A stretch of 64,000 bases of DNA, taken from assembly GCA_046759445.1 (NCBI GenBank), contig JBHICG010000001.1:94467-158466 (forward strand). Direction: 5' to 3'. Shown here in pieces: positions 470 through 21,258 of this stretch; within the stretch, counting starts at the first letter, position 1; each line of letters begins with the position of its first letter. A program made the position numbers and the translations under genes. The notes beneath the pieces were generated by a model. That model saw only the letters and a program-made list of their open reading frames with translations, did no database searches and was not told the origin of the DNA. This stretch comes from Candidatus Scalinduaceae bacterium (GTDB lineage Bacteria > Planctomycetota > Brocadiia > Brocadiales > Scalinduaceae).

Positions 470-1006
470 ATGAGGTTGGAAATGAAAATAACGAAAAGAA
501 CGTTTTTAATTGTATTACTAAATATATTTGTAATGCCCTTTCTTACATTCAATGTCAATAACGATATAGTATTTGCTGAAATTGAGACTGGTGTAAGTGT
601 AGGACAGAAAGCATCTCCATTCAAACTATTAAGTATCGATGGCAAGGAATTGGATTTGAGATCTTTTGGGGATGGGAAGGTTACATTATTGGTTTTTGGT
701 GCTACATGGTGCCCCGCTTGCAAACATGAAGTTCCACTTCTTAAGGAATATTACAATGAATTTAAAGATGATGGACTTGAAGTGTTAAATATTGACATTC
801 AAGAGACCGAAAGGAAGGTCAGATCGTTTGTTGAAAAGAATCAGATAAATTATTCAGTTGTTCTTGATTCGAAAGCTGAAGTGGCAATGTTATATAAGGT
901 AGTGGGTATACCTTTAAATATCATATTTGATAAAAACGGGATAATAAAATACAGGGAAAATAGGCCACCGAGCAAAGAGACTCTAGAAAAATTATTAGCC
1001 AACTAA
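470..1006 (+). CDS. TlpA/ResA-family thiol-disulfide oxidoreductase
   Basis: Signal/TM N-terminus, ATWCPAC, GIP cis-Pro loop. Confidence 0.9.
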   Translation: MRLEMKITKRTFLIVLLNIFVMPFLTFNVNNDIVFAEIETGVSVGQKASPFKLLSIDGKELDLRSFGDGKVTLLVFGATWCPACKHEVPLLKEYYNEFKDDGLEVLNIDIQETERKVRSFVEKNQINYSVVLDSKAEVAMLYKVVGIPLNIIFDKNGIIKYRENRPPSKETLEKLLAN

Positions 1007-2929: not shown

Positions 2930-3259
2930 ATGGCAAATATAACAGTAGTAGCAAACGAAGAATTTGAGCAGACGGTTATTCAATCCGATGTGCCTGTTCT
3001 GGTTGACTTTTCTGCAGATTGGTGTGCACCTTGTAAGACACAAACACCTATTTTAGATGAACTATCCAGCGACTTCGATGGTAGGATTAAGTTTGCGAAG
3101 GTAGATATTGATGTAGATGGAAACAAAGAATTGGCTACGAAGTACGGCGTCTTATCCGTGCCAACTCTAATACTTTTTAGCAATGGTAAAATAAAGGATA
3201 CTATGGTTGGCGTTACAAGCAAAAAGAAACTTGAACAAAAATTTGAACAGGTTTTGTAG
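2930..3259 (+). CDS. trxA: Thioredoxin
   Basis: VLVDFSADWCAPC, VPTL, 109 aa. Confidence 0.95.
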   Translation: MANITVVANEEFEQTVIQSDVPVLVDFSADWCAPCKTQTPILDELSSDFDGRIKFAKVDIDVDGNKELATKYGVLSVPTLILFSNGKIKDTMVGVTSKKKLEQKFEQVL

Positions 3260-3271
3260 GAATAATATTAT

Positions 3272-3979
3272 ATGGAAGGTTTTTTGCAAGGTTTAGAAGG
3301 TTATCTCAGCGCATCACCATTTCTTGCTTACATAGCAGTCTTTTTGGGTGGTGTACTCACCAGCTTTACGCCCTGTGTATACCCGATGATACCGATAACG
3401 ATTGCATATATAGGAGGACGTAGTGGTGAGTCAAGATTAAAGGGATTTTCCCTTTCGATTTTTTACGTAATAGGAATGGCAGCGACATACTCTGCTCTAG
3501 GAGCATTTGCAGCTTTGACAGGAAAACTTTTTGGCGCTGCCAGTACGAATCCTATACTCTACCTGGTCGTTGCTAATATCTTTATTTTTTTAGGCTTGTC
3601 AATGTTAGATGTCTTTGTCCTGCCTATACCTTCATTTCTTGCGAGCAGACAACCTGGTAAGAAAGGTGGTGAGTACTTTGGAGCGTTTCTAGTAGGACTT
3701 CTTGCCGGAACGGTTGCAGCGCCATGTACAGCTCCTGTATTGGGGGTTGTCTTGACCTTTGTGGCGGCAAAACAAAATGTCATTTACGGCATGACCTTAC
3801 TTTTCATCTTCTCCATAGGGTTGGGGACGCTCTTAATCATTGTAGGTACGTTTGCGGGTTTGATGTCGAGTATGCCCAAGACTGGGAAGTGGAGTGTGGC
3901 TATCAAAAAGTTTTTTGGTTGGGTAATGATAGGAACAGGAGAATATTTTCTTATAACGGCAGGAAAATTATTGGTCTAA
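3272..3979 (+). CDS. ccdA: CcdA/DsbD transmembrane electron transporter
   Basis: TPCVYP and APCTAP motifs, about six TM helices. Confidence 0.9.
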   Translation: MEGFLQGLEGYLSASPFLAYIAVFLGGVLTSFTPCVYPMIPITIAYIGGRSGESRLKGFSLSIFYVIGMAATYSALGAFAALTGKLFGAASTNPILYLVVANIFIFLGLSMLDVFVLPIPSFLASRQPGKKGGEYFGAFLVGLLAGTVAAPCTAPVLGVVLTFVAAKQNVIYGMTLLFIFSIGLGTLLIIVGTFAGLMSSMPKTGKWSVAIKKFFGWVMIGTGEYFLITAGKLLV

Positions 3980-3988
3980 TTTGTATAA

Positions 3989-4684
3989 ATGATAAGTAAG
4001 ATGAAGATACTTGGCATCAGTGGGAGTCCAAGAAAAAGTCAGACAACAGAGGGATTAGTTAGGACAATCCTGGATGCAACTGGTTTAGAGACAGAATTAA
4101 TATCTTTACACGGCAAGAAGATTAATGGTTGTATATGTTGTCTGGGATGTGTTGAAGACAATATCTGTAAAGTCCAGGATGATTATATCCCCTTAATGCA
4201 TAAGGTACTGGAAGCAGACGCTATCGTGATTGGTGCTGCCAATTATTTTGGCAGGCTTAATGCCCTCACACATTCATTTCTAGAACGACTTTACTGCTTC
4301 AGGCATAACAAGGATGGACATGGTGGTATGAGACTTTCCGGTAAATTAGGGGCTATTGCTTCAGTAGGGGGCGGCGGGGAATGGGAAATGCCCGGAAGAG
4401 ATAGTAAAATGTACGAGATTGCAGGAGAAGATGTTAGGGGATTTTTTGACTATAATGAGATTGAGCTTGTCGGAATCGTAGAGGCACAGGGTGCAGTACC
4501 ATGCTTTTCGTGTGATTATGGTGAAGTCTGCAGTGTAAGCGGTGTAAAAGCTTTTTTTGGCAAGGGTGCAAAGATTACGCCCGAAATCATACCGTGTTTG
4601 GAAAAGCAGCCTGAAGTCGTAAATAAGGCAAAAATGCTTGGAAATGCCTTGCACGATAGATTAAAAAATAAAGAAAAAATGTAA
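3989..4684 (+). CDS. Flavodoxin-family / iron-sulfur flavoprotein
   Basis: GISGSPR, CICCLGCVEDNIC cluster motif. Confidence 0.85.
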   Translation: MISKMKILGISGSPRKSQTTEGLVRTILDATGLETELISLHGKKINGCICCLGCVEDNICKVQDDYIPLMHKVLEADAIVIGAANYFGRLNALTHSFLERLYCFRHNKDGHGGMRLSGKLGAIASVGGGGEWEMPGRDSKMYEIAGEDVRGFFDYNEIELVGIVEAQGAVPCFSCDYGEVCSVSGVKAFFGKGAKITPEIIPCLEKQPEVVNKAKMLGNALHDRLKNKEKM

Positions 4685-4903: not shown

Positions 4904-5470
4904 ATGAAAAATTTTTTTATAAATTGTTATTTAAGAATCTTATTCACTGTTGGAATAGTCCTGTGCGGGATTCTCAATTTGGAATTGAAAGGTAAAGCTG
5001 CCTCTATTGGAAAACAGGCCCCCGAGTGGGTGATTTCCGAATGGATTAATACTACAGGATTTACACTTGCGGATATGCGTGGAAAGGTTGTGGTGATTGA
5101 CTTTTTCCAGCTCTGGTGTCCCGGTTGTAACAATTTCTCCATACCCCTTATGGAGAAATGGAAACAAAAATATCGTGGTCATAAAGATATTCAATTGATT
5201 GGTATTCATACGGTCTTTGAGGGACATTCTCATCAAACACCAAAAAGATTACGCCAATACATCAAAGAAAAGAACATAGCTTACCCTGTAGGAATTGATG
5301 ATCATGTATCAAATAAAAGAACACCAGAAACAATGATTCGTTATCGTACTCGTGGAACTCCTGAAATGGCAGTCATTGATAAAGGGGGTAATATCCGTTT
5401 TCAGCATTTCGGTGGTTTTAATCCAGCAGTTGCAGAAAAGCTTATAGATGCACTTCTAGCCGAAAAGTAG
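4904..5470 (+). CDS. TlpA/redoxin-family thioredoxin-fold protein
   Basis: FQLWCPGC, GIHTVFE, GTP. Confidence 0.85.
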   Translation: MKNFFINCYLRILFTVGIVLCGILNLELKGKAASIGKQAPEWVISEWINTTGFTLADMRGKVVVIDFFQLWCPGCNNFSIPLMEKWKQKYRGHKDIQLIGIHTVFEGHSHQTPKRLRQYIKEKNIAYPVGIDDHVSNKRTPETMIRYRTRGTPEMAVIDKGGNIRFQHFGGFNPAVAEKLIDALLAEK

Positions 5471-5564: not shown

Positions 5565-5638
5565 TGTCATTCCCGCGAAGGCAGGAATTCACACCCCTTT
5601 GTAACAATTGTGTCATTTCTCCTTTCGTAGGAACGACA
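5565..5638. repeat. Intergenic palindromic REP-like element (TGTCATTCCC...GGAACGACA)
   Basis: Imperfect inverted repeats with ATTCCCGCGAAGGCAGGAAT internal hairpin. Confidence 0.55.
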
Positions 5639-5689
5639 CACTTATTGTCTAAATATTTATTGTTTTCTATATAAAAACGAAATACTTTT

Positions 5690-6298
5690 ATGGATTATAA
5701 GTTTTTAATAAATACATACGAGACAGAGAGAATTAAGACTTTGAGTACATGGTGCACGTTCAAGGACGAGGACCTTCCTAAGCGTCCTCATCCCGGGGAT
5801 AAACGCGGGAGAAATGCTCTTGAGCATATGGTTCATCAGTGTATGAGTGAGAATAAATGGTTTACGGGCATGCTGGGTATTGATGTCGGTGCTCCCCCAT
5901 TACCTGAAAAGGAAACACGTTTGGAGTTTATTAAGCGTTATGCTGAAGATTCAGAAAAACGGGTAGAGGCCTTAAAAGAGAAGGATAATAATTGGTGGGA
6001 AGAAGATGTCAAGTTCTTCGAATTTAATCGTTCACGAGCATGAATTGTTACCAGAAGAATCACCCATACTGCACATCACCGAGGTCAACAGACTATGTTA
6101 TTGCGAATGTTGGAACGTGAGATTTACAGCACTTATGGTCCAACTGCTGATACAGGTGGTTTACAACAAAATAATGCGCTAACGATATATCCTTATCTTA
6201 ATATAGAAACACTAATCAAAGAAGAAACAGCCGGTGGTGCCAAGGCTTCATTGCCAGGGCCTGGAGAAAAACCATGTACGGAACGACCTGAATCTTAA
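5690..6298 (+). pseudogene. DinB-family protein interrupted by an in-frame TGA at 6041-6043
   Basis: Two ORFs in the same frame; read-through gives RSRA*IVTRRITHTAHHRGQ, which carries the DinB His motif. Confidence 0.8.
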
Positions 6299-6374
6299 TA
6301 TGAAAACAAGGGACATCGTTGCATTACTTAGTACTACATTTCATAAATACGGTTACGTATTGTCTTTCGAGCAA

Positions 6375-6408
6375 GAGATTCTTCGTCACTTCGATCCTCA
6401 GAATGACA
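6375..6408. repeat. REP-like palindrome, GTCATTCTGA/GAAGAATCTC family
   Basis: Related copies at 9993-10024 and 14503-14640, and a more diverged one at 60872-60921. Confidence 0.6.
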
Positions 6409-6499
6409 GTTAAAATACGTCACCGTATTTACAAACAAGAGCACTTAGTCCCAGCCAATATAGTAAATATCTAAAAAAATAGGCAGATATAATCTTCTT

Positions 6500-8812: not shown

Positions 8813-8831
8813 ATATAGATAAAACATTTTT

Positions 8832-9959
8832 ATGGCAATATTAATAATCCTTTTCCTGACTACGTGTTTTCTTGCATACTCAAACGGTGCTAATGATAAC
8901 TTTAAGGGAGTAGCTACGCTCTTTGGTAGCAGAACTACTAATTATAAAAACGCCATTCGGTGGGCGACTATTACGACTTTTGCAGGTTCGGTGGGTTCGG
9001 TATTCTTTGCTCACGCCCTTGTAAAGACCTTTTCTGGAAAGGGGTTGGTACCACAGGATATCTCTATATCACCTGAATTTCTTACCGCGGTGGCAATCGG
9101 TGCCGCTATTACGGTCATGGTTGCGACGGTTACGGGTTTCCCCATATCAACCACACACAGTCTTACGGGCGCCCTCGTTGGCGCTGGGTTTATGGCCATA
9201 GGCTCGGAGGTTAACTTTACCGTCTTGGGCAGCTCTTTTTTTCTTCCACTTTTACTCAGTCCCTTTATCGCAACAGCAATTGGCGGAATTCTTTATATTT
9301 TATTCCGAAGTATTCGCATTCGTTCTGGTATTACAAAGGAGTGGTGTCTTTGTATTGGCGAGCAGAAGGAAATAATACCCTCTACCCAGCCAGTTGCTAT
9401 CCTTGCAGCAAAATGTGGGAATTCCATCGATGCGACAATTGATAAAAGTCAAAACTGTATAGAAACCTATAAAGGAAATTTCCTGGGCATGAATTGCCAG
9501 AAGATGTTAGATTATCTGCACTTTTGTTCTGCTGGCATTGTGAGTTTTGCCAGAGGCTTAAATGATACACCAAAGATTGTAGCACTTTTATTATTAATCA
9601 AGGGTCTGGCAATACACTGGGGTATGCTGGCTGTCGCTGTTGGTATGGCGCTAGGCGGACTTTTAAATGCCCGCAAAGTCGCCGAAACTATGAGTAACAA
9701 AATCACAAGGCTTAATCACGGTCAGGGCTTTACAGCAAACCTTGTTACTGGTATACTTGTTATATTTGCCAGTAAGTTTGGAATGCCAGTATCTACGACA
9801 CACGTATCAGTAGGGTCGCTCTTCGGTATAGGCTTGGCTACTAAGCACATAAACACTCATAAAGTACTAGAAATAATTTTATCGTGGTTCATAACACTGC
9901 CCTTAGCTGCTATATTCAGCGGCGGCGCTTATTGGATATTAGTCAGATTTGCGAATTAA
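8832..9959 (+). CDS. PiT-family inorganic phosphate/anion transporter
   Basis: NGANDN, GLND, and PISTTH/PVSTTH repeated signatures. Confidence 0.92.
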   Translation: MAILIILFLTTCFLAYSNGANDNFKGVATLFGSRTTNYKNAIRWATITTFAGSVGSVFFAHALVKTFSGKGLVPQDISISPEFLTAVAIGAAITVMVATVTGFPISTTHSLTGALVGAGFMAIGSEVNFTVLGSSFFLPLLLSPFIATAIGGILYILFRSIRIRSGITKEWCLCIGEQKEIIPSTQPVAILAAKCGNSIDATIDKSQNCIETYKGNFLGMNCQKMLDYLHFCSAGIVSFARGLNDTPKIVALLLLIKGLAIHWGMLAVAVGMALGGLLNARKVAETMSNKITRLNHGQGFTANLVTGILVIFASKFGMPVSTTHVSVGSLFGIGLATKHINTHKVLEIILSWFITLPLAAIFSGGAYWILVRFAN

Positions 9960-9992
9960 TCTAGGAAGGATATTTAACACTCGGCAACACTT

Positions 9993-10024
9993 TGTCATTC
10001 TGAAGAGGAACGACGAAGAATCTC
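9993..10024. repeat. REP-like palindrome (GTCATTCTGA family)
   Basis: TGTCATTCTGAAGAGGAACGACGAAGAATCTC. Confidence 0.55.
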
Positions 10025-10111
10025 ACGATATAGGGGCGTATGACAACCCGCCCGAATAGGTACATGCGGGTACGCCCTCACATACACAAGCCTTGTAGCT
10101 AATCAACAATT

Positions 10112-11623
10112 ATGGATAAAATGTTTTTAATAATAATCCTTATTTTCTACTGTCCTGCAGCATTATGGTTGTTCCTCTATGGCATTAACAATTATTATAT
10201 GGTTTATCTTTTTTTAAGTAAAAGGAAGAAAGAAGCATCTCAAAATGCTGAATTCCTCAAACGGTTCTGGTCTACTCATGGCAAATACAAGTTGCCAAAA
10301 GTTACTACACAATTACCCATATATAATGAAAGATACGTAGTAAAACGTTTAATTAAGGCGGTTGTGAATCTTGATTATCCGAAGGAACTACACGAAATTC
10401 AGATACTGGACGATTCTAATGATGAAACGAGAGATATAGTAGCTGATCTGGTTAATAAATACAGTAAAAAGGGATTCAACATAAAACAAATCATCAGAGA
10501 AAATAGAATTGGGTTTAAGGCAGGTGCCTTAAATAAAGGACACGAAGAAGCTGAAGGTGAGTTTCTGGCAATCTTTGATGCTGACTTTGTGCCTGATAAA
10601 AACTTTTTTTATGAAACCATCCCTTTCTTTTACGAAAAAGAAAAAGTTGCCCTTGTCCAGACACGGTGGGGACACATAAATAGAAATTACTCTCTCCTAA
10701 CAATTGCCCAGAGTATTGGCATGGATGGACACTTTATTATTGAACAGGGCGCCAGGACATGGAACGGCCTTTATATGAACTTTAATGGGACTGCTGGAAT
10801 CTGGAGGAAAGAGGCAATCGTTGATGCTGGAGGGTGGCATTATGATACTTTAACTGAGGATTTAGATTTATCATACAGGGCACAATTAAAAGGATGGAAT
10901 ACAAAATTTCTTTTTGATGTAGTAACGCCTTCAGAGTTACCCGTGGATATGAATGCCTATAAGTCCCAACAGCATAGATGGGCTAAAGGCTCAATACAAA
11001 CTGCCAAGAAGGTTTTGCCACAGATATTTAAGACGAAAGATAGTTTTACAAAGAAGATTGAGGCATTTATACACCTCAACCAGTATATGGTACACCCTAT
11101 GATGATCGTCCTTGCCTTACTATCCCTTCCATTAATAATCTTATTAAAACCATTAGTAATCTCTATTTCTAGTACAATGGTAGCCCTGTTGCTTCTAATA
11201 TTCCTGGGAGCCTCTGCACCATCATTTCTTTATATAGTATCTCAGAAGGTAGGTTATAGGGATTGGTGGAAAAGATGTTTGTTTATACCTGCGCTTATGT
11301 TTATCGGATGTGGAGTTGCCATCAATAACACAAAGGCTGTGCTTGAAGCATTATTTAACATTAAGAGTGATTTTGTTAGAACGCCGAAGTACGGTGTTAT
11401 CAGAAGAGGAAAGAACATAATAGCAAAAAATTATACTTTACCAGTAAAGTTATTCTTTGTCAGTGAAATACTCTTAAGTATATATTGTTTTATTGGATTC
11501 ATACAATATACAAACGACAAGAAGTTTGTCTTTGGGCCTTTTCTATTAATGTATGCAATAGGGTTTTTCTACGTAGGCATACTGTCTCTTTTGCAAAAAT
11601 TTAATGAGAAAATAAAATGCTGA
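10112..11623 (+). CDS. Processive GT2 glycosyltransferase (cellulose synthase-like)
   Basis: DDS, KAG, DAD, TEDLD and QQHRW motifs; flanking TM helices. Confidence 0.93.
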   Translation: MDKMFLIIILIFYCPAALWLFLYGINNYYMVYLFLSKRKKEASQNAEFLKRFWSTHGKYKLPKVTTQLPIYNERYVVKRLIKAVVNLDYPKELHEIQILDDSNDETRDIVADLVNKYSKKGFNIKQIIRENRIGFKAGALNKGHEEAEGEFLAIFDADFVPDKNFFYETIPFFYEKEKVALVQTRWGHINRNYSLLTIAQSIGMDGHFIIEQGARTWNGLYMNFNGTAGIWRKEAIVDAGGWHYDTLTEDLDLSYRAQLKGWNTKFLFDVVTPSELPVDMNAYKSQQHRWAKGSIQTAKKVLPQIFKTKDSFTKKIEAFIHLNQYMVHPMMIVLALLSLPLIILLKPLVISISSTMVALLLLIFLGASAPSFLYIVSQKVGYRDWWKRCLFIPALMFIGCGVAINNTKAVLEALFNIKSDFVRTPKYGVIRRGKNIIAKNYTLPVKLFFVSEILLSIYCFIGFIQYTNDKKFVFGPFLLMYAIGFFYVGILSLLQKFNEKIKC

Positions 11624-12669
11624 TTATGAATATTCCTGATAAAAGACTTTTTCAATTATTTTGCCTAATAGCCTGTTTAACGATTCCAGCAATTGATTTA
11701 GACCGTACATGTTTTGCAAACATACACGAAAAGGACGAAATAAAATATGTACTTCCTCGTGACGCTATCCCTGCCATAAAGAATCCTGAATTTGTCCCTG
11801 CAAGTGAAGCAAGACTTGATGATGATGAACCTGTTATAGGCATAACTATTAATGGTGAAAGTCGTGCCTATTCTGTTTATCTCCTGAATCATCACGAAAT
11901 AGTCAATGATAAAATAGGAGATAAAGATATTGCCATCACCTGGTGTCCCCTTGCGAACCTGGCAGTTGTATATAACAGGAAAGTTGACGGCAAAGAATAT
12001 ACGTTTGGAGTATCGGGTAAGCTACTCAAGAACACCCTCGTAATGTTTGATTACGAAACTGAATCCCTCTGGCCAATCGTTTATGGCAAGGCTATAGATG
12101 GAAAACTATCGGGTAAAAAAACAAATATAGTAGTTAACAGCCAAAAGATGTCATGGGGTGCATGGAAGGCATTACACCCAGATACATTGCTACTGTCTCT
12201 TCATGGTTCAAGAACAGTTGGTTATGATGTTTATAAACATTATCATAAGAGTAAAAAAACAGGCATATATCCTGTCGTAAATTCAGATAAAAGTTTAAGT
12301 GCGAAGACAAATGTTATCGGAATAGAACTTAATAGCAAACATAAGGCTTATCCCTTTAGCATATTTGATACTACGAAAATAGTTACTGATAAATTTCAGG
12401 GTGAGGACTTGCTTATTTATAGAAACAATGAGACCAATAATATCATGGTCTATGATAGACACGTAGACGAATATATAATTGATTTTGAAGAAAATTCATC
12501 ACAAAATTTTGCTACGGATAAAACAACAAAAACTACGTGGGACTTGGAAAATGGGATTGGCATAAAGGGTAACATGAAGGGTATACGGTTACAACGTGTT
12601 AGTTTTATGGCCATTTACTGGTTTGTCTGGGCAGATTATTATCCTGATACTGAAATATTTAATCAATGA
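11617..12669 (+). CDS. DUF3179-family protein
   Basis: DAIPAI, HEIVND, WCPL, FGVSGKL, D.ETESLW, C-terminal YWFVW..YYP. Confidence 0.85.
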   Translation: MLIMNIPDKRLFQLFCLIACLTIPAIDLDRTCFANIHEKDEIKYVLPRDAIPAIKNPEFVPASEARLDDDEPVIGITINGESRAYSVYLLNHHEIVNDKIGDKDIAITWCPLANLAVVYNRKVDGKEYTFGVSGKLLKNTLVMFDYETESLWPIVYGKAIDGKLSGKKTNIVVNSQKMSWGAWKALHPDTLLLSLHGSRTVGYDVYKHYHKSKKTGIYPVVNSDKSLSAKTNVIGIELNSKHKAYPFSIFDTTKIVTDKFQGEDLLIYRNNETNNIMVYDRHVDEYIIDFEENSSQNFATDKTTKTTWDLENGIGIKGNMKGIRLQRVSFMAIYWFVWADYYPDTEIFNQ

Positions 12670-12770
12670 ATTTCATTTACTGAAAATCAAATGGGAAACC
12701 TACTTTTTATCCCCTCCTTACGAACTTCTAGTTACCCACAACTCTGGGAGGGATAAAGAGCATGGAGTAG

Positions 12771-12838
12771 CACCCCTTAGTCCCCCCACTGCTTTCTTGC
12801 ACCGTATCGGCACGATGCGAAAGCAAGAAGTGGGGGGA
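12771..12838. repeat. Palindromic element (CCCCTTAGTCCCCC family)
   Basis: 40-bp core at 12791-12830 matches 14085-14124 with one mismatch; relative at 53711-53774. Confidence 0.75.
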
Positions 12839-12987
12839 AATAATGTATAATTAGTTTCTTACGGAGGGGAGATAATTAATTCGTTCTCTTTCCTTAAATA
12901 TGATGTGGGTAAGGTTAAGCCTTACGAACGAGGGGGAAATGGGGGTGGTTAAATAAAATGGAATCTCAGTTACATTGAACAAATACC

Positions 12988-14484
12988 ATGAATAGGAAAT
13001 TACTTTCCATAATAATAACAGGACTGGTCATTGAAATCCTGTGTATTTCGATTGCTTCCCTTGGAGATATCAAGGAAAATATACCTATGTTTTGTTTTCT
13101 GTATACAGCCTCTTTTATTGTTTATATCTTTGCTGTATTTTATATTTTGAAAAACACCGAGATATTTGGAAAAGACAAAAGCAATTCTAAAAAGATTCTT
13201 TGGACTATTATAATCTTTTCACTGATATTTCGTTTGACACTATTACCTATGACTCCATCAGAGGATGTTTATCGTTACTTATGGGAAGGAAAGTTACAAT
13301 TAAATTGGCTTAATCCATATTCCTACCCGCCGGAATCGTCAAGTCTGGAACATCTCAGGGACAACTTTTTTTCCGGCATTAACCACAAACATCTGACCAC
13401 AATCTACCCTCCACTGACGTTAATGGCGTTTGCCCTAGCGGATTACGTATCTCATTCCTTCATATCAATGAAGTCTACTTTTTTGTTTTTTGATGTGCTT
13501 TCAATATTCATATTAATAAGGTTTTTAAGGGTAGTGGGAGGGAAACCCGCTAATGTGTTGATATATGCATGGAGCCCGTTAGTCCTTATTAGTTTTGCGG
13601 CAAAGGGACATTGCGATTCTTTGCAGATATTTCTCGTAATTCTTGCCTTATACCTTTTCTCTATTAGAAAGAATTTAAAATCTATCGTTTCGATTGGCCT
13701 GGCAGCAATGTCCAAATTTGTATTCATTATTATAGCCCCTTTCTTAATTCCCAGACGTAAACTCAAATATCTTATAGTTTTGTTTACAGTTATTGCACTT
13801 TTGTACTTACCATACATTGGCGCTGGTAAGGGGTTATTTTCGACACTTTTACATTTTGGGACTCAATATCATTACAATGATTCAGCTCACTTCCTGATTT
13901 TTTGCCTATGTCTCGGCTCTCCATTTATGTCTAAGATAATTACGTCTATAATTTTTTGCGCTGTACTTTTGTATTTGTATATAAATCATATGACCCTTTT
14001 ATTTACAAAAGATAATGAAAATTCCCCTAATTCCTGCTTTAGCAGGCATAAAGGGGGGACAAATCCCCCTCTTTCCCCCCCGCAGCTTTCTTGCACCGTA
14101 TCGGCACTATGCGAAAGCAAGAAGCAGGGGGGATTTAGGGAGATTGATGATAATATTTTAAAATTTGCCTTTCTGTCTGTTGGTACCTTTTTAATATTTG
14201 CACCAACAGTTCATCCATGGTATCTAACATGGATTGTCCCCTTCCTCTGTTTCTATCATAGCTGGGCATGGCTTGTCTTGACAGGAACTGTTGTTTTCTA
14301 TTATTTTATGAATCATAATTTATTTTCAAGTATGATAGAGTATAACAACGAATGGGTATGGCAAGAAGTCCACTGGTTAAAATTACCAGAATATGTCCCT
14401 TTTTATTGTCTGTTAATTTATGGATGGCTAAGATCAGGTTCAGCCGCTAAGGCACGCCAGAACGATGTATCGGCTGTGTCATAA
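12988..14484 (+). CDS. Polytopic GT-C glycosyltransferase (GT87/DUF2029-like) with an in-frame repeat insertion
   Basis: SEDVYRYLWEG, TIYPP, YAWSP, GHCD and TVHPWY motifs. Confidence 0.8.
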   Translation: MNRKLLSIIITGLVIEILCISIASLGDIKENIPMFCFLYTASFIVYIFAVFYILKNTEIFGKDKSNSKKILWTIIIFSLIFRLTLLPMTPSEDVYRYLWEGKLQLNWLNPYSYPPESSSLEHLRDNFFSGINHKHLTTIYPPLTLMAFALADYVSHSFISMKSTFLFFDVLSIFILIRFLRVVGGKPANVLIYAWSPLVLISFAAKGHCDSLQIFLVILALYLFSIRKNLKSIVSIGLAAMSKFVFIIIAPFLIPRRKLKYLIVLFTVIALLYLPYIGAGKGLFSTLLHFGTQYHYNDSAHFLIFCLCLGSPFMSKIITSIIFCAVLLYLYINHMTLLFTKDNENSPNSCFSRHKGGTNPPLSPPQLSCTVSALCESKKQGGFREIDDNILKFAFLSVGTFLIFAPTVHPWYLTWIVPFLCFYHSWAWLVLTGTVVFYYFMNHNLFSSMIEYNNEWVWQEVHWLKLPEYVPFYCLLIYGWLRSGSAAKARQNDVSAVS

Positions 14485-14502
14485 TTATAAAAACGCTCTC
14501 AA

Positions 14503-14640
14503 TGTCATTCTGAACCCTTCGCCCGTCATTCTGAGCCGAAGGCGAAGAATCTAGTTGAGGCTCAGGATAAACTCCGTTAAGAATCTGATATCTTCAGTAG
14601 GTTATAAAACCGAGATTCTTCGGCTAACGCCTCAGAACGA
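14503..14640. repeat. Composite REP/MITE-like element (GTCATTCTGA family)
   Basis: Nested GTCATTCTGA...GAAGAATCT units and a facing GAGATTCTTCG...CTCAGAA unit. Confidence 0.65.
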
Positions 14641-14698
14641 TTATATGACAGAGCTTTAAATATTTCTTACATAATGTTTTATGGGAGGTTAACACTAA

Positions 14699-17245
14699 AT
14701 GGAAGTAAACGATAAATCACTTTTTTACGTACATGATTATGTTCAAATAGAGAGAGACTCTCTTTATCTACTTATAGACCCCGAAACACCAAATTGGATT
14801 GTAACTGACAAAAGAGGCAGCCAGATTGTAAGCAATATTAAAAAATGTAAAAACGTTAGAAAACTGATATTCGACTATGCAAATGATTTTGATATGGAAC
14901 AAACCAGGGCATGGTTGGAAATAGATACATTTCTGAGGGATTTGATAAGGTGTAAATTCTTATCCTCAGAACCCGTAAAGAAAACTGCTTACGTCGGCAG
15001 ATCAAATTTCATTCACGCAGAAAAACTCAATGAACTATGGATTCACACTAATAATCTCTGCAATCTGACATGTCCGCATTGTCTGGTGAATTCATCTCCA
15101 CACGAGGATAAAGGTCTTCCTACGGACTCAATCAAGAAGATTATTGACGAAGCTGTAACATTAGGAACAAGCTGTTTCTATTTTACGGGTGGCGAGCCAT
15201 TTATGAGGAAAGATATTTTTGAACTTATTGAGTATGTTTGCAATCGTAAAGGGACAGAACTGATAATACTTACAAATGGAACACTTCTGAGAGGAAACAT
15301 CATTGAAAGATTACAAAAGTTTAATAAGGAACAACTAAGGATTCAGATAAGCCTTGATGGTTCAAAGCCGGAAATAAACGACCCTTTGAGGGGTAAGGGC
15401 AGCTTTGACCAAATTATCGAGGGGATTAAGAATATTATCAGGATTGGATATTCTCCGACAATAACAACCGTGGTGACAAAACATAATATTAATGATGTGC
15501 CTGAAACGACAAAGCTGATTGCACAATTGGGTGTAAAGACTCATCATCTCCTCTGGGTACACAAACGAGGCAGGGTAACTGATAATGGTAATGATTTTTT
15601 TACTTCAATAGATGAGGTAATCGAAACAACGAGAAAGGTGAAGGATGTAGCAGATAACCTGGGTATGTCAGTAGACAACATTGATTCTTACAAATTCAGG
15701 GCAAATAGCAACAGAGGAACACGTTACGATTTGGGTAATGCCTGTTACGATAGCATGTGCGTATATTCAAATGGTGAAGTCTACCCGTCTGCTTCATTTG
15801 CCGGCCATGAAGGGCTGAAATGTGGAAGTATACTTGAGAATTCCCTTAGAGAAATCTGGGAAAATAGTAATATTAGCAAGGCATTTAGAAACGCAACACT
15901 ACAGAATAAAGAAAAATGCAACGAATGTCATATAAAGTTTATATGCGGTGGTGGTGATATTGAACATTCATTCTTCTATTCTGAAAATGGGTTCAAGCTG
16001 GAAAATAATAAATTCCCTGCAGACGTTGGCGTACATGCCTTGGACCCTTATTGTGACCTGCACAAGGAGATAGTCAATGACGTAATATTTGAGCTTGCTG
16101 AGGCGAGGAAGAAGTTGTTGGAAAGAAAAACAGGGTTTACTGCTCCCGTTGTATTACGCTCAATGGGCGAAGGCTCTCTCAATTGTGGATTGACGATTTC
16201 GGATTTCGGAATAGAAAATCTAAAATCCGAAATCCGAAATCCGAAATCGGTTCGTACTCTTCATTCAAACTGTGTGCTTTCTTTTGACGTGGATAAGCCA
16301 AGAAGTATTGTACGTGAGTTTTATGGTAATGCGGCAGAAGCTCCTCAAGAGGACTTATGTTGTCCAACCAAGAATTCAACAGAAGATACAAGTCATATTC
16401 CACAGGATGTATTGGACAGGTTCTATGGATGCGGAAGTCCGACTACAATAGCAGAAGTCTCAGAAGGAGAGACGATGGTCGATTTGGGAGCAGGCGCGGG
16501 GATTGACTGTTTCATTGCTGCAAAGAAGGTTGGCCCAAAGGGTAAGATTTACGGGATAGACATGACGGATGAAATGTTAAAGGTTGCCAATGAAAACAAA
16601 CATCCGGTGGCAAGGAACCTTGGTTACGATATTGTGGAATTTAGAAAAGGATTTTTAGAAGATATTCCCGTTGATAATAATTCAGTTGATTTGATCACAT
16701 CAAATTGCGTTATCAATCTATCCCCTGACAAAAAAAAGGTCTTCGGCGAAATGTGGCGAATACTGAGGGATCACGGGAGGATTGTTATCTCTGATATTGT
16801 TTCTGAAGAAGAAACTCCTCCGTTTTTAAAAATCAATAAACAACTGTGGGGTGAATGCATCAGCGGCGCATTAACCGAAGACGAATTTATGTCCTATCTT
16901 GAACAGGCTGGCTTTTATGGACTTCAAACACTACAGAAGGTCTTCTGGAAAGAAGTGGAAGGGTATTCATTCTATTCAGTAACATTACGTGGGTATAAGT
17001 TTGAAAAGAAGGAGGGTTGTGTATACGTTGGGCAAAAGGCAATTTATCATGGCCCGTATAAGGCAATAACGGATGAAGAAGGCCACCTGTTCCCCAGGAA
17101 CGAGCCCGTTGAAGTCTGCACAGATACAGCGGCCAAACTAAGCAACCCACCTTATGCAGGACAATTTACCATATTCAATCCTGACGATGCAAATACCGCA
17201 TCATACAATTGCAGTCCCTCGGAAGAAGGCGTTCCTTGTTGTTGA
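14699..17245 (+). CDS. Radical SAM/SPASM domain fused to an ArsM-like arsenite methyltransferase
   Basis: CNLTCPHC, FTGGEP, SPASM Cys (CYDSMC, CNECHIKFIC); MTase half has LCCP, YGCGSP, DLGAGAG, SNCVIN, WGECISGA; ends in PCC. Confidence 0.88.
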   Translation: MEVNDKSLFYVHDYVQIERDSLYLLIDPETPNWIVTDKRGSQIVSNIKKCKNVRKLIFDYANDFDMEQTRAWLEIDTFLRDLIRCKFLSSEPVKKTAYVGRSNFIHAEKLNELWIHTNNLCNLTCPHCLVNSSPHEDKGLPTDSIKKIIDEAVTLGTSCFYFTGGEPFMRKDIFELIEYVCNRKGTELIILTNGTLLRGNIIERLQKFNKEQLRIQISLDGSKPEINDPLRGKGSFDQIIEGIKNIIRIGYSPTITTVVTKHNINDVPETTKLIAQLGVKTHHLLWVHKRGRVTDNGNDFFTSIDEVIETTRKVKDVADNLGMSVDNIDSYKFRANSNRGTRYDLGNACYDSMCVYSNGEVYPSASFAGHEGLKCGSILENSLREIWENSNISKAFRNATLQNKEKCNECHIKFICGGGDIEHSFFYSENGFKLENNKFPADVGVHALDPYCDLHKEIVNDVIFELAEARKKLLERKTGFTAPVVLRSMGEGSLNCGLTISDFGIENLKSEIRNPKSVRTLHSNCVLSFDVDKPRSIVREFYGNAAEAPQEDLCCPTKNSTEDTSHIPQDVLDRFYGCGSPTTIAEVSEGETMVDLGAGAGIDCFIAAKKVGPKGKIYGIDMTDEMLKVANENKHPVARNLGYDIVEFRKGFLEDIPVDNNSVDLITSNCVINLSPDKKKVFGEMWRILRDHGRIVISDIVSEEETPPFLKINKQLWGECISGALTEDEFMSYLEQAGFYGLQTLQKVFWKEVEGYSFYSVTLRGYKFEKKEGCVYVGQKAIYHGPYKAITDEEGHLFPRNEPVEVCTDTAAKLSNPPYAGQFTIFNPDDANTASYNCSPSEEGVPCC

Positions 17246-17269
17246 TGCTACTCTGGGCATGCCCTAATA

Positions 17270-17905
17270 TCATTTCAGTGTCTGGTTATACGCTTTTATA
17301 TTTATGAGCATCACCTCAACGGCCATCATGGCAGTTGACCAAATAATGTCAGTTGACAGATGTGATACACAACTTGAATCGAACAAGAGGGACGACTTTG
17401 ATGAGAATTCTTCATCACCTGACCACACAATAAGTACTACAGGCACCCTTGGAAAAGGGGAAAGCTTTAAAGAAATATCTCCATATTCTAACTGAGAACC
17501 ATCAAGACTTTTACCGATGTTTAAAAATTCCTTAAAATTATTGCTAAAGTACTCAGCTATTTTATCCAGGGGAATGACATGCGTGCCTTTCAAAAAAATA
17601 TCTCCTCCAGGTAAATCTGAGGGCCGCACGAGTTGACCCGATAACGGTAGATCTTTCGCATGAATCAAGTATCTAAGAATTGAAAGCCTTGAATATTCAC
17701 GAAGTTCTTTGACCAGGAATTTCCCTAAACTAGAAGTACCGAAGATATCTCGATTCGTCAATGAAATATAGACATCCTGACCAAAGCAGGCTAGTTCATA
17801 TGTCGAATTATGAGAATTAAAAATTACATTAGCCCTGGTTTTTACATCCTTTGAGTCAAGCCCTGTAAGTATATCCCATGCCTGTTTTTCACCTGGCCAT
17901 GCCAT
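17270..17905 (-). CDS. DUF3786-family protein (cassette)
   Basis: DLPGG..F..TH, FPRVP, W.GDEEF.S.S.LLFD. Confidence 0.8.
   Translation of the reverse strand: MAWPGEKQAWDILTGLDSKDVKTRANVIFNSHNSTYELACFGQDVYISLTNRDIFGTSSLGKFLVKELREYSRLSILRYLIHAKDLPLSGQLVRPSDLPGGDIFLKGTHVIPLDKIAEYFSNNFKEFLNIGKSLDGSQLEYGDISLKLSPFPRVPVVLIVWSGDEEFSSKSSLLFDSSCVSHLSTDIIWSTAMMAVEVMLINIKAYNQTLK
17274..17291 (-). other. Truncated attC, left arm only
   Basis: GTATAAC-CAGAC-ACTGAA at the gene end; pairs with the cassette start GTTGTAC. Confidence 0.5.
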
Positions 17906-17919
17906 AATTTATTCTTTTT

Positions 17920-17994
17920 GTACAACGCTCCGCATAACCGGCTGGTAAAGAAGCACAGCAGATTTACCAGTCTGAGTTGATGCGGTTGTTGGGC
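17920..17994 (-). other. attC site (75 bp)
   Basis: Minus strand GCCCAAC AACCG CATCAACT...CTGGTAAA/TTTACCAG...GGTTATG CGGAGC GTTGTAC. Confidence 0.9.
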
Positions 17995-18008
17995 ATTGTG
18001 CATATGCA

Positions 18009-18878
18009 CTATCTATTTAGTTCGTTCTCGATAACGTGCGACAATTTATCCCACGTTTCCTCTTGCTCAATTTCTGGCAATGATAGTAATGGTTTGTCAG
18101 GAGAATTTAATGCTTGAAATTGTGAAAGGTGCTTGTCTCTCAAAAACCGACATGGTTTTAAAATAATAGGTAGTACCCTTGTTCCTTCTAGCTCAGCTTT
18201 TTTGAGAATCGGAGGTAGTTCATTCTCAACAATGAAGTCGGATGCAAGAAAATCGGCACTTATTATTAAAACCGCTATTGCTGCCTCTGATAGTGCTTTT
18301 TCGATTTGTTCTTTCCACTTTTCTCCCGTCTTTATCTTTGTATCATCCCATACATCAACCAATCCATTTTTTTCTAATGGCTTGAGATGAACATGAAGTC
18401 TTTCTAGATGTTTTTTGTCTTCACGGCTATAACTTATAAATACTGATTTTTTATTTTTTGATTTTGCACTGTTCTCTTCTCTGTAATAGTTTAATTTCTC
18501 GTTTTTTAAAAATATATTTCCCCCTGTTCCTATAGAAGACCGCCATGTCCCTTCTATAGCACCATTACCGATAACCTTAGCATTAAGAGTTACGTTTCCA
18601 TGATTCGAAGTTGGCATGCTAATGGTTAGTGGACGGTTATTAACAAAAATTTGTTGTGTGCAATTTTTCTTTAAAAAATCCCAGTCTGGAGTCATATTCA
18701 ATGTAATATCATCATTCTTAATTTCTCCTGAAAATGAATACACTACTGTACCATGAATTGGGTCATGAATTCTGGCAATACCCGAAAGCTTGGTTAATTC
18801 CTGCTTTACTTCTGCAAATACATTTGCATTATTAGTTCCTGTGATTCTTCCTGACCAATTCCCCTCAATACTTCTCAT
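18009..18878 (-). CDS. TIR-domain protein with N-terminal beta-rich domain (cassette)
   Basis: VFISYSRED, VWDD, ISADFLASDFIVENEL including the putative catalytic Glu. Confidence 0.9.
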   Translation of the reverse strand: MRSIEGNWSGRITGTNNANVFAEVKQELTKLSGIARIHDPIHGTVVYSFSGEIKNDDITLNMTPDWDFLKKNCTQQIFVNNRPLTISMPTSNHGNVTLNAKVIGNGAIEGTWRSSIGTGGNIFLKNEKLNYYREENSAKSKNKKSVFISYSREDKKHLERLHVHLKPLEKNGLVDVWDDTKIKTGEKWKEQIEKALSEAAIAVLIISADFLASDFIVENELPPILKKAELEGTRVLPIILKPCRFLRDKHLSQFQALNSPDKPLLSLPEIEQEETWDKLSHVIENELNR

Positions 18879-19240: not shown

Positions 19241-20359
19241 TCATTTTTCAACTTCTGCCGCCTGTCTCAATGCTAAAAATGCTTCTTTTAAAGGTTGATT
19301 GACAGCGGAATTAGGTTCATCAAGCACTAATTTTTGATATTCCTCGATAAAAGCTGTTCTTTTTCTATGAAAAAAATGCAGAAAGTGTTTTATGAACCCT
19401 ATGCAGTCAAGTATTGCTATTTCAAACTTAGACAAATCATAAATAGATTTTGCATATTCACTAACTTCAAAATCAATTTCTTCGGTGGTTATGAAAATAT
19501 AGTTATCTATGTTTAACTTAGACTCAGCAATTTTTTTAATTGCAATCTCAATATCAGATTTGGTTATTCGCTTTTCTTTCATTTCATAGCTTGTAACAAT
19601 ATTATCATCATTGATTAAAGTTACTTCAACGTCACCATAAGCACCAGTTTGTTTGTCCGCCGCATTGTGTGCTTGTAAATCATTTATTTTTTCTCCAATC
19701 AAATCTGAAACACTGTTATATGCTGCGGCAACTATTAAAATAGGTAATCTGCTTGAATTTTTACAAGCCAAGTGTTGCTGCAATAAATTAACAATTTGCT
19801 CAGATGATAGAGCAATTGATTTGTCTGAGCCTTTTAAAGTTTCGATTAGCTGTTTAATCCGTTTAGCATTTTCTTCCCGTATTATGACGAGTATTCTAAT
19901 CGTTTCTTTAAATAGTTTTTCGGCTGATAAGTTACCTTTATGGACTTCATCAATCAACTCAAGAGCTGCTTTGTATAGCTCAGGTTGTCGGCCAACAAGC
20001 TCTGTTTTGGGTGTCATTGTTGAATTTCTATTTCTAAAAGCAGGAGTCAAGTATGCAGTTGTTGTATTGCAAGGAAGGTTATGTTTTTCTATTACCTTTT
20101 GTATATACTGCTCGTCATAAGTTCTTCCTGAGTAAGCATCTTTATCCCTTATTTCTGTATATGGCTTTCTGATATCAATCTTGGAGTTGTCTATTTTTGC
20201 AGCGCAGCAGGACAATAAAAACCTTATCGGCGCTTTAATTCTTATATTCCTACAGACAAACTCTATTTTCTTCTCTAAATGCTTGCTACCAACGAAAGTC
20301 CTTTTTGCATGTATTGCTCTTTGTACATATTCTTCCAGAGTATTCAATAAATTACTCAT
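19241..20359 (-). CDS. Putative type II restriction endonuclease (PD-(D/E)xK)
   Basis: Directly downstream of an MTase; GDVE...YEMK catalytic-like motif. Confidence 0.7.
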   Translation of the reverse strand: MSNLLNTLEEYVQRAIHAKRTFVGSKHLEKKIEFVCRNIRIKAPIRFLLSCCAAKIDNSKIDIRKPYTEIRDKDAYSGRTYDEQYIQKVIEKHNLPCNTTTAYLTPAFRNRNSTMTPKTELVGRQPELYKAALELIDEVHKGNLSAEKLFKETIRILVIIREENAKRIKQLIETLKGSDKSIALSSEQIVNLLQQHLACKNSSRLPILIVAAAYNSVSDLIGEKINDLQAHNAADKQTGAYGDVEVTLINDDNIVTSYEMKEKRITKSDIEIAIKKIAESKLNIDNYIFITTEEIDFEVSEYAKSIYDLSKFEIAILDCIGFIKHFLHFFHRKRTAFIEEYQKLVLDEPNSAVNQPLKEAFLALRQAAEVEK

Positions 20360-20361
20360 TT

Positions 20362-21258
20362 TTATAATAACCTGCCTATTGTTTCGACTTCATAATTTAC
20401 CCATAGCACTTCTTTTCTTTTATCTTTTGTTGAATGTATTGTCTTCTGTGGGCCAAAATGTTTTTTCCATTTTGGAGCCGGATATAATTTATCCATTAGT
20501 TCACATTCATAATTTGATATTGCAGCTTTTCCCTTGATATTGTTTAAGACCATTGACAACTGAACATGCTCGTCATTACTCATTTCAAAACCATATGCTT
20601 TATTGTCGCCTCTTGTATCGTGAACATATGGCGGATCGCAATAAAAAAGAGTTTCCTTACTATCATACAATTGTATTACTTCAATTGCCGGTCTATTTTC
20701 AATCTGAACTCTTAAAAGCCTTTCTGCAATAAAATCAAGCTTTTCAACTCCACCAATATAACGACTGATAACACCACTCATTCCAGAACGACTTGTATTT
20801 TTGCAATTTGCCCATCTTCCAATTGTTGCCGTTTGTGCTAATCCGGTTCTTACTTGCCTCGCTCTTATATAAAACCTTCTTGCACGTTCTAACTCATCCT
20901 GACTACTATCCAACTCGCAGGCTAGAGAAAATTCTTCTCTGGAAAACGGCGTTAACAAGATTTGTTCTAAAAGTTTCTCTTTTTGAGATCGTAAAACTCT
21001 AAAGAAATTAACAACTTCTCCGTCTAAATCATTATATGTTTCTACATTAGATGGATATCTGTTGAAAAGCACTGCACCTGAACCTGCAAATGGTTCACAG
21101 TAATGATTACAAGAGGGCAAAAGAGGTAATAACCAATCCAAATGAGAATATTTTCCCCCATACCACCCAAAAGCAATTACCTTTTTTCCATTTAATCTTG
21201 TTAATGGTGAGGGAGTCTTTTTTCCGTTTTTACAATTCTTTATCTGCATTTTAATCAT
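20362..21258 (-). CDS. D12-class (Dam-like) N6-adenine DNA methyltransferase
   Basis: WYGGK, EPFAGSGAV, DPPY. Confidence 0.93.
   Translation of the reverse strand: MIKMQIKNCKNGKKTPSPLTRLNGKKVIAFGWYGGKYSHLDWLLPLLPSCNHYCEPFAGSGAVLFNRYPSNVETYNDLDGEVVNFFRVLRSQKEKLLEQILLTPFSREEFSLACELDSSQDELERARRFYIRARQVRTGLAQTATIGRWANCKNTSRSGMSGVISRYIGGVEKLDFIAERLLRVQIENRPAIEVIQLYDSKETLFYCDPPYVHDTRGDNKAYGFEMSNDEHVQLSMVLNNIKGKAAISNYECELMDKLYPAPKWKKHFGPQKTIHSTKDKRKEVLWVNYEVETIGRLL

Follow-up and report, generated by a model that had tools for sequence, protein, structure and literature searches.

The 64,000-nucleotide stretch analysed here, referred to below as the window, comes from Candidatus Scalinduaceae bacterium, a marine relative of the anammox bacteria whose 3.62 Mb genome is 97% complete. 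Between positions 8832 and 17245 it carries five consecutive plus-strand genes, coding for a PiT-family anion transporter, a membrane glycosyltransferase (GT) of family 2 (GT2), a DUF3179 protein, a membrane protein of 498 amino acids (aa) and, last in the row, an 848-aa open reading frame (ORF) in which an enzyme of the radical S-adenosylmethionine (SAM) type, with a SPASM domain, is joined to an ArsM-type methyltransferase. This fusion protein, whose closest homologues bear Candidatus Scalindua names (77–88% identity in a word-indexed protein search), is the subject of the present analysis. A sequence-only reading of the same DNA had described PiT, a processive GT2, DUF3179 and a GT of the GT-C type as co-oriented with the fusion, and these ORFs were indeed found, all on the plus strand (Table 1).

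A conserved radical SAM–ArsM fusion family

The sequence-only reading had also recognized in this single polypeptide a CxxxCxxC motif, a SPASM domain, a methyltransferase with cysteines at ArsM-like positions and a terminal CC, all of which are borne out by Pfam and by motif inspection. The Radical_SAM model PF04055 matches at E 3.3e-28 (99.4 bits, cut-off 29.5) around C121, C125 and C128, the SPASM model PF13186 at E 5.7e-8 (33.4 bits, cut-off 21.5), and Methyltransf_31, at residues 589–738, at E 1.4e-32. The ArsM-like motifs are CCP (C554, C555), GCG (C578), NCV (C670) and ECI (C720), and the chain ends in C847 and C848. In alignments with PDB entries, C72, C174 and C224 of CmArsM stand opposite C578, C670 and C720, and the first conserved cysteine of CrArsM stands opposite C554. 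We take the As(III)-binding cysteines of CmArsM to be C44, C72, C174 and C224, a numbering that PDB titles confirm for C72 and C224. The solved relatives of this half are CrArsM (5evj, E 6e-41 over residues 515–832), CmArsM (E 3e-36) and human AS3MT (E 1e-35), and ArsM structures also come first when the C-terminal half of the predicted model is searched with Foldseek.

An N-terminal domain of PqqD/RRE size had likewise been proposed, and here the evidence is divided. The AlphaFold model of the fusion, built from 18 family members (mean pLDDT 70.8), places three strands followed by three helices at residues 15–84 (pLDDT about 88–90), residues D27, P31, W33 and G40 of this domain are invariant in the family alignment, and 6 of the 18 relatives match the PqqD model PF05402; the window protein itself gives no such match at E ≤ 0.01. 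The same model is confident for the radical SAM/SPASM core and moderate for the ArsM part, and it leaves the tail (residues 831–848) disordered and undocked with a pLDDT below 50.

Of 8000 candidates scored in a word-indexed search, 2397 proteins reach E ≤ 0.001, and the 120 matches listed are mostly full-length, show 50–88% identity and are named only “methyltransferase domain-containing protein” or “radical SAM protein.” In GTDB contigs, searched with one genome per species, a relative is encoded at 570 of the 599 pattern matches. The best 80 relatives, full-length copies at 44–88% identity from GTDB genomes, are the basis of all locus counts out of 80 given below. They fall under at least 12 phylum-level labels, including Planctomycetota, Acidobacteriota, Elusimicrobia, Omnitrophota, Nitrospinota, Nitrospirota, Thermodesulfobacteriota, Dadabacteria, Latescibacterota, Wallbacteria, Gemmatimonadota, Armatimonadetes and Spirochaetia metagenome-assembled genomes. 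The fusion thus defines a conserved family, and because full-length orthologues this similar occur in 80 genomes, its architecture lies far beyond chance. Full-text searches, whose coverage excludes most subscription journals, found no description of it in the literature.

Residue conservation was assessed in the 74 of these 80 proteins that could be recovered in one ORF with a length of 700 aa or more; the window protein was added for the count of the terminal CC (n = 75). All five ArsM-like cysteines, C554, C555, C578, C670 and C720, are invariant (74/74), CxxxCxxC is kept in 72 of 74 proteins, the other two having a gap or an X, and 72 of 75 end in CC. The full SPASM motif comprises seven cysteines. 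In the fusion, the cysteines of this region are C354, C375, C407, C410, C416 and C452, and Asp420 replaces the fourth cysteine of CX2CX5CX3C. Family members retain C354 in 72 of 74 cases, C407 and C410 in 35 each and C416 in 36, with an Asp at position 410 in 36 of 74, and D420, which is part of a CGGGDxEH motif, is present in all 74. This pattern suggests that residues 407–420 form a family-specific site in place of the canonical auxiliary cluster.

Fragments on short contigs account for most of the 67 shorter matches, and a few matches from long contigs may represent radical halves that genuinely stand alone (P0122, 455 aa; P0149, 432 aa). One fusion homologue (G090:C86:5383-7785) is interrupted by a single in-frame TAG, which could mean that the gene is broken, that the assembly is in error or that the stop is recoded.

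Table 1. Positions of the fusion gene, its domains and surrounding features in the window
Feature	Position	Strand	Basis or remark
Fusion protein, whole gene, 848 aa	14699..17245	+	Pfam, NCBIfam, PDB alignments
Fusion residues 1–95, RRE/PqqD-like winged-helix domain	14699..14983	+	AF2 topology, StsB alignment
Fusion residues 119–273, radical SAM core, C121xxxC125xxC128	15053..15517	+	PF04055
Fusion residues 350–411, SPASM domain, followed by family-specific CGGGDxEH motif	15746..15931	+	PF13186
Fusion residues 407–420, candidate family-specific site	15917..15958	+	Residue conservation
Fusion residues 537–848, ArsM-type As(III) SAM-methyltransferase domain, C-terminal domain and CC-ending disordered tail	16307..17242	+	NF008823, PDB alignments
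PiT/PHO4-family anion transporter, 375 aa	8832..9959	+	PF01384
Membrane GT2, cellulose-synthase/PgaC type, 503 aa, QQHRW motif	10112..11623	+	Pfam GT2 families, Cellulose_synt
DUF3179 protein, 350 aa	11617..12669	+	PF11376
GT87/MptA_B-like GT-C membrane glycosyltransferase, 498 aa	12988..14484	+	ESM Atlas, AF2 model, Foldseek
ResA-like	470..1006	+	Possible accessory thiol-redox gene
Thioredoxin	2930..3259	+	Possible accessory thiol-redox gene
DsbD/CcdA membrane protein	3272..3979	+	Possible accessory thiol-redox gene
FMN reductase	3989..4684	+	Possible accessory thiol-redox gene
ResA-like, second	4904..5470	+	Possible accessory thiol-redox gene
Palindromic element, first copy	12782..12837
Palindromic element, second copy	14076..14131
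DUF3786 gene	17270..17905	−
TIR-domain protein	18009..18878	−	Defence-type island
SacI-like restriction endonuclease	19241..20359	−	Defence-type island
D12-class adenine methyltransferase	20362..21258	−	Defence-type island

Gene linkage across phyla and mutual exclusion with ArsS

Neighbours of the fusion were counted in the 80 loci in two ways, by tblastn with the window proteins and, more strictly, with domain profiles built from the loci (Table 2). Conserved linkage of the GT and PiT genes to the fusion, a test of the proposal that had been set beforehand, was found for PiT, GT-C, DUF3179 and the GT2 with a QxxRW motif. PiT mostly adjoins the fusion on the same strand, and 3 of the 11 loci with the QxxRW GT2 lie outside Scalinduaceae/Anammoxibacter (L023, L042, L068). 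At least one of PiT, a GT87-like protein, an AglJ-like GT2, a TIGR04282-like (DUF2064) and a TIGR04283-like protein is encoded within 10 kb of the fusion in 47 of the 80 loci. One or more of the four glyco genes occur in 34, of which 28 are outside Scalinduaceae/Anammoxibacter. These counts are lower bounds, since the available DNA reaches 20 kb in only 38 loci and falls short of 12 kb in 16. In other phyla, neighbours of the fusion score above the NCBIfam cut-offs for TIGR04282 (193–210 bits, cut-off 134) and TIGR04283 (226–259 bits, cut-off 182), both of which carry the NCBI name “arsenosugar biosynthesis glycosyltransferase.”

Table 2. Genes found near the fusion and near canonical ArsS genes
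Neighbour	Fusion loci, tblastn	Fusion loci, profile	ArsS loci, profile
PiT	29/80	25/80	1/20
GT-C-like/GT87-like	18/80	17/80	4/20
DUF3179	12/80	10/80	2/20
QxxRW GT2	11/80	11/80	0/20
DUF547		19/80	7/20
DUF2064		18/80	11/20
TIGR04283-like GT2		17/80	9/20
MerA-like reductase		15/80	3/20
ECF sigma		14/80
AglJ-like GT2		12/80	6/20
VTT/DedA		9/80	3/20
Stand-alone ArsM			11/20

The order of these genes varies between lineages. It is PiT, GT2, DUF3179, GT87-like and fusion in the window and in other Scalinduaceae; GT87-like, AglJ-like GT2, DUF2064, fusion and PiT in two loci (L077, L069); a protein joining TIGR04283 to AglJ, then GT87-like and fusion in five Vicinamibacterales loci; and PiT, fusion, TIGR04283, DUF2064, VTT and MerA-like in another (L025). 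Directly upstream of one fusion gene (L044:7171-10002), GT87-like, AglJ-like GT2 and DUF2064/TIGR04282 parts are combined in a single 943-aa protein, a link of the Rosetta-stone type which suggests that the three act together. Genes for ResA/AhpC-like and DsbD_TM proteins recur near the fusion beyond Scalinduaceae (L011, L013, L017, L018, L023, L051), and FMN_red occurs near it only in Scalinduaceae loci.

For comparison, 20 canonical ArsS loci were cut from Planctomycetota genomes and scanned with the same profiles; the first 12 were picked for an ArsS close to TIGR04282 and the other eight irrespective of their neighbours. Many neighbours are shared between the two kinds of loci, and one accessory set therefore surrounds either ArsS together with ArsM or the fusion. 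With no occurrence in the ArsS loci, the QxxRW GT2 is the weakest link to the module.

The distribution of the two systems over genomes points in the same direction. Among 30 fusion genomes, ArsS was above its cut-off in two and not found in 28, and TIGR04282 was above its cut-off in 28. Planctomycetota were sampled evenly, and of the 301 genomes taken (thresholds of E ≤ 1e-150 for the fusion, 1e-70 for ArsS and 1e-30 for TIGR04282), 12 encode the fusion, 77 ArsS and 126 TIGR04282. None of the 12 fusion genomes contains ArsS, and 10 contain TIGR04282, the two that lack it being 86% complete; TIGR04282 accompanies ArsS in 68 of 77 genomes. In the Planctomycetota searched, the fusion and ArsS are mutually exclusive. 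Within a single genus of this phylum, two species have the fusion without ArsS and a third has ArsS without the fusion, all three with TIGR04282 (G227, G259, G320), and this difference looks like a recent swap.

In the genome from which the window derives, a whole-genome profile search identified the fusion as the sole ArsM-like gene and found no ArsS above cut-off, the best match to the ArsS model being the fusion itself. TIGR04282 lies on another contig, C86 (203.5 bits; DUF2064 in Pfam), and TIGR04283 at C1:79287-79922 (238.2 bits), where it stands with an AglJ-like GT2 about 30 kb upstream on the same strand, beyond the window. All three are outside 8832–17245 and none adjoins the fusion. 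Just upstream of the window, C1:78448-93916 (locus L118 3949-19417) carries on its plus strand an AglJ-like GT2 followed by TIGR04283, then an RND efflux system between two ECF sigma/anti-sigma pairs, and last VTT/DedA, a MerA-like reductase and DUF547. Up to and including the fusion, about 33 kb of co-oriented genes contain nearly all recurrent neighbours known from other phyla, and the module is therefore larger than 8832–17245 and larger than the window. The thiol-redox genes at the beginning of the window (Table 1) are possible members of it; together with a multihaem cytochrome gene directly upstream of PiT they occupy positions 470–8812. The search did not find an Acr3 arsenite efflux gene in this 97% complete genome (ArsB was outside the search), and its sole ArsC-like match reaches 139.8 bits, under the cut-off of 174.3.

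Three adjacent genes were rejected as module members by tblastn: the upstream multihaem cytochrome and the downstream DUF3786 and TIR genes are each found in none of the 80 related loci. The DUF3786 gene faces the fusion tail to tail, their stops only 24 nt apart, and beyond it lies a minus-strand defence-type island of a TIR-domain protein, a restriction endonuclease and an adenine methyltransferase (Table 1).

Ahead of the fusion gene lies a spacer of 214 nt, unconserved save for the ribosome-binding site and nearly absent in three relatives. Its ORFs of 23–34 aa are likewise unconserved, which speaks against a precursor peptide encoded there. No conserved small ORF was found beside the fusion among the relatives, and for this reason the peptide-modification branch of the sequence-only reading is without support.

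The neighbouring genes in the window

The window PiT matches PF01384 over the full model (E 1.6e-68, about 231.7 bits, cut-off 33.7). It is a divergent second paralogue, the canonical copy on contig C18 scoring 414 bits. The GT2 is recognized by Pfam GT2 families (E 3e-21) and by Cellulose_synt (E 7.9e-9), scores 134.8 bits against the CelA model (cut-off 699) and contains DAD, TED and QQHRW motifs. The DUF3179 gene, whose start overlaps the GT2 stop by 7 nt, is present in a single copy in the genome; its product matches PF11376 (E 1.2e-82, 278 bits) and has a hydrophobic N-terminus, and is probably exported.

The assignment of the 498-aa protein to the GT-C glycosyltransferases holds even though the gene has no Pfam match at E ≤ 0.1, GT87 (PF09594) included. 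ESM Atlas places it with GT87/MptA_B clusters (feature score 0.99, structure TM 0.82), and the 30 best-ranked PDB neighbours of its AF2 model (pLDDT 81.6, pTM 0.84) are all GT-C-fold membrane proteins, among them ALG3, PIG-M (GPI mannosyltransferase I), PimE, AglB and ArnT, at weak Foldseek E-values of 4e-3 and above and a TM by target of 0.51–0.65. A profile search of PDB sequences gave PIG-M at E 0.007. Four of seven GT-C homologues scanned do match PF09594 (E 6e-7 to 3e-4), two of them above and two below the 25-bit cut-off. D93, the acidic residue of a first loop of the “SDDxYRYLWDG” type, is invariant, and by analogy the donor would be a polyprenol-phosphate-sugar.

Two copies of a 56-nt palindromic element, 91% alike, are found in this part of the window. 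The first occupies the spacer between DUF3179 and GT-C, and the second lies in frame inside the GT-C gene, where it falls in a loop (residues 345–380) that is disordered in the predicted model. A contig of a related strain from an RNA library is without the first copy, joining position 12785 to 12852 with 22 other letters between.

No match to an Rfam family was found in window positions 1–30000. A promoter/terminator scan gave no plus-strand terminator-like site within 6000–18500 and 49 promoter-like sites against 39.5 ± 7.4 expected, a result that is compatible with co-transcription and otherwise uninformative. When positions 6000–18000 are divided into 30 bins, contigs from two RNA libraries of one study cover all 30 and 27 of them, respectively, at 95–100% identity and span the cytochrome/PiT and GT2/DUF3179 junctions; such contigs show neither transcription, strand nor level, and give a hint that a near-identical strain was present in the sampled study. 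One of them joins position 6410 to 14502, skipping 8091 nt from the cytochrome through most of the GT-C gene. The shorter side of this joint has 21 letters, where a minimum of 30 is advised, and the explanation could lie in a chimera, in a repeat or in a strain without the block.

Alternative readings and a proposed arsenosugar-type pathway

In known systems, radical formation of C–As bonds is reported for two enzymes only, ArsS and ArsL. ArsS catalyzes a radical cleavage of the C-adenosyl–S bond of SAM in arsenosugar synthesis, according to a preprint (bioRxiv 10.1101/2024.02.01.577332). The pathway of the Synechocystis type, represented in NCBIfam by TIGR04167, NF038099, TIGR04282 and TIGR04283, resembles the system described here in pairing an ArsM-type methyltransferase with four catalytic cysteines with a SAM-cleaving radical enzyme, and in its accessory genes for DUF2064/TIGR04282, TIGR04283, AglJ-like GT2, GT87-like GT-C, DUF547, MerA-like, VTT, DUF3179 and PiT. 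The genetic and enzymatic papers on ArsS are reportedly those of Xue et al. in 2019 and of Cheng et al. in 2021. The fusion differs from this pathway in placing both activities in one polypeptide, in the SPASM/RRE lineage of its radical half, in its RRE-like domain and CC tail, in the lack of ArsS from most fusion genomes and, in the window's own genome, in the separation of the transferases from the fusion. In the arsinothricin pathway, a CxxxCxxC radical SAM enzyme, ArsL, likewise forms a C–As bond and ArsM methylates, according to published work; however, the neighbours of the fusion are glycosyltransferases rather than amino-acid-type genes, the arsinothricin ArsM model NF040538 reaches 204.7 bits, far under its cut-off of 500, and no ArsL-named family stands among the best 25 of the 37 models that the radical half matches in NCBIfam.

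We favour the reading, at a probability of roughly 60%, that the fusion does the work of ArsS and ArsM together, as a non-orthologous replacement in a variant arsenosugar-type pathway leading to an organo-arsenic glycoconjugate. The sequence-only reading had proposed a variant pathway in which a SPASM enzyme fused to ArsM makes a methylarsenic intermediate for glycan or lipid attachment, and this idea is supported in part. It gains from the linkage, the arsenosugar-named transferases, the accessory genes shared with ArsS loci and the exclusion with ArsS; it loses in that the radical half is no relative of ArsS. Several observations weigh against the reading we favour. The profile comparison with known arsenic enzymes, which that earlier reading had suggested, left the fusion under each cut-off, narrowly at 240.4 bits for the ArsM model NF008823 (cut-off 263; model positions 38–229 of 272; 241.4 bits in the whole-genome search), 160.8 bits, far under the cut-off of 400, for the arsenosugar-type ArsM model NF038099, and 77.6 bits for the ArsS model TIGR04167 (cut-off 300), which aligns at model positions 2–151 of 303 only. 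The nearest families and folds of the N-terminal half are RRE-dependent peptide maturases, StsB, TigE, CteB and SuiB, and to judge from these matches the radical half belongs to the RRE/SPASM peptide-maturase lineage and not to the ArsS family. The loss of three SPASM cysteines in about half of the family is unexplained by the pathway model, and 33 of the 80 fusion loci are without any core neighbour within the available DNA. TIGR04282 and TIGR04283 owe their functional names to comparative genomics and not to assays, and TIGR04282 is not exclusive to ArsS or the fusion, since 48 of the 126 positive Planctomycetota genomes have neither. The DUF2064 count at ArsS loci (11/20) is biased by the choice of 12 of these loci for closeness to TIGR04282, and the Fisher p of 2.7e-4 for the exclusion of ArsS and fusion within TIGR04282-positive genomes makes the exclusion look too strong, kin being non-independent. 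Finally, the analysis shows the domain architecture, the invariant residues, the conserved linkage and the exclusion with ArsS, while arsenic methylation and C–As bond formation by the fusion family are functions that we infer.

The element handled could be other than arsenic. With the same architecture, the ArsM-like domain would then methylate S, Se, Te or Sb, and the envelope would receive a sugar akin to methylthioxylose, with a methylthio or methylseleno group. In the methylthioxylose capping of mycobacterial lipoarabinomannan, MtxS (Rv0539), a GT2, makes the lipid-linked methylthioxylose donor, a polyprenyl-phosphate derivative of a 5-deoxy-5-(methyl-heteroatom) pentose, and MtxT (Rv0541c), a GT-C, transfers it outside the membrane, according to two papers (PMC8780516, PMC12088412). 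The recurrence of an AglJ-like GT2 and a GT87-like GT-C with the fusion recalls the logic of this system, in which the heteroatom is sulfur and no radical SAM or ArsM enzyme is reported. Further points that would fit another element are the reported existence of selenoproteins in the ArsM and TIGR04167 families, the recurrent thiol/disulfide redox neighbours (ResA, thioredoxin, DsbD, MerA-like reductase), the cytochrome directly upstream of PiT, which scores 249.7 bits (cut-off 800) against ExtM, a model named for selenite/tellurite reduction, and the PiT protein, for which sulfate-permease and phosphate-transporter models give nearly equal scores (73.2 and 72.5 bits). We nevertheless consider this explanation unlikely: the family has kept without exception the four cysteines with which solved ArsM enzymes bind As(III), its best solved relatives are arsenic methyltransferases, the enzyme replaced, ArsS, acts on arsenic according to published work, and the cytochrome is not linked to the fusion in any of the 80 loci.

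The ancestry of the radical half invites another interpretation, namely that the fusion is a maturase of ribosomally synthesized and post-translationally modified peptides (RiPPs), in which the RRE would bind a precursor, the radical SAM/SPASM part crosslink it and the methyltransferase methylate it, with unrelated glycosyltransferases alongside. The fold and domain order of residues 1–490 (RRE-like, radical SAM, SPASM) match those of the RRE-dependent maturases TigE, CteB, SuiB, SkfB and StsB: the sactipeptide maturase StsB is the best NCBIfam model (148.9 bits, aligned from residue 5, followed by NirJ2, AhbD and MftC), and the top Foldseek matches of the N-terminal half are TigE, CteB, SuiB and SkfB, with about 490 aligned columns, a TM by target of 0.57–0.73 and E 4e-17 to 5e-16. 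The predicted fold of the N-terminal domain, its invariant residues and the PqqD matches of some relatives agree with this. The fusion departs from such maturases, however, in being joined to ArsM and in having no precursor-peptide gene, an invariant Asp in place of the fourth cysteine of CX2CX5CX3C and, in half of the family, no three SPASM cysteines. No RiPP-typical protease or exporter gene is among the recurrent neighbours, a peptide methyltransferase would have no need of four invariant arsenic-binding cysteines, and linkage and genome profiles tie the fusion to the ArsS-type module, all of which makes a peptide maturase very unlikely. A detoxifying ArsM of the ordinary kind, with an Fe–S half that supplies electrons or senses redox and with neighbours that form a separate envelope-polysaccharide cluster, seems more improbable still. 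ArsM homologues are fused to varied domains, such as AhpD and DUF2284, according to NCBIfam names and published work, and some arsenic defence is to be expected where Acr3 was not found; yet the family has kept the SAM-cleaving CxxxCxxC and lost cysteines of the electron-transfer type in its SPASM domain instead, the linkage to glyco genes spans phyla, and the mutual exclusion with ArsS would be left unexplained.

Under the reading in which the fusion replaces ArsS and ArsM, we infer the following chemical steps. The divergent PiT paralogue would import an oxyanion, arsenate. After reduction, the four invariant ArsM-domain cysteines would bind As(III) for SAM-dependent methylation, by homology with known ArsM enzymes, and speculatively the flexible C-terminal CC tail may ferry arsenic between the active sites. 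By its genomic equivalence to ArsS, the radical SAM/SPASM half would cleave SAM and couple the methylated arsenic with a carbon radical, which on the model of ArsS would be 5'-deoxyadenosyl, the product being a 5'-deoxy-5'-arsinoyl nucleoside. TIGR04282 (DUF2064), TIGR04283 and the AglJ-like GT2, encoded elsewhere in the genome, would convert it into a polyprenyl-phosphate-linked sugar, and the GT87-like GT-C would pass this sugar to a putative envelope acceptor outside the cytoplasmic membrane, following the logic of MtxS and MtxT. The DUF3179 protein and the QxxRW GT2 may also have roles in the pathway. Because the pairing of a polyprenol-phosphate GT2 with a GT-C recurs, the product is suggested to be attached to the envelope and not simply excreted.

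More tentatively, marine anammox bacteria and many uncultured anaerobes of at least a dozen phyla might decorate their envelopes with arsenosugars by a second, independently evolved route to C–As bonds, in which one enzyme, its radical SAM lineage taken over from peptide maturases, methylates arsenic and forges the C–As bond, with the CC tail as a carrier that is perhaps docked on the RRE, and a GT-C transfers the polyprenol-linked arsenosugar outside the membrane. If so, the fusion would represent a third, unrelated radical SAM lineage that forms C–As bonds, joined to ArsM as a non-orthologous replacement. Known producers of arsenosugars are cyanobacteria and algae, and the range of candidate producers would widen to anammox bacteria, Acidobacteriota, Elusimicrobia, Omnitrophota, Nitrospinota and others. 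In anoxic waters and sediments, these organisms would be unrecognized bacterial producers of arsenosugars and arsenolipids, and attachment of the product to the envelope, if true, would change the reading of arsenic cycling in oxygen-poor seas and soils.

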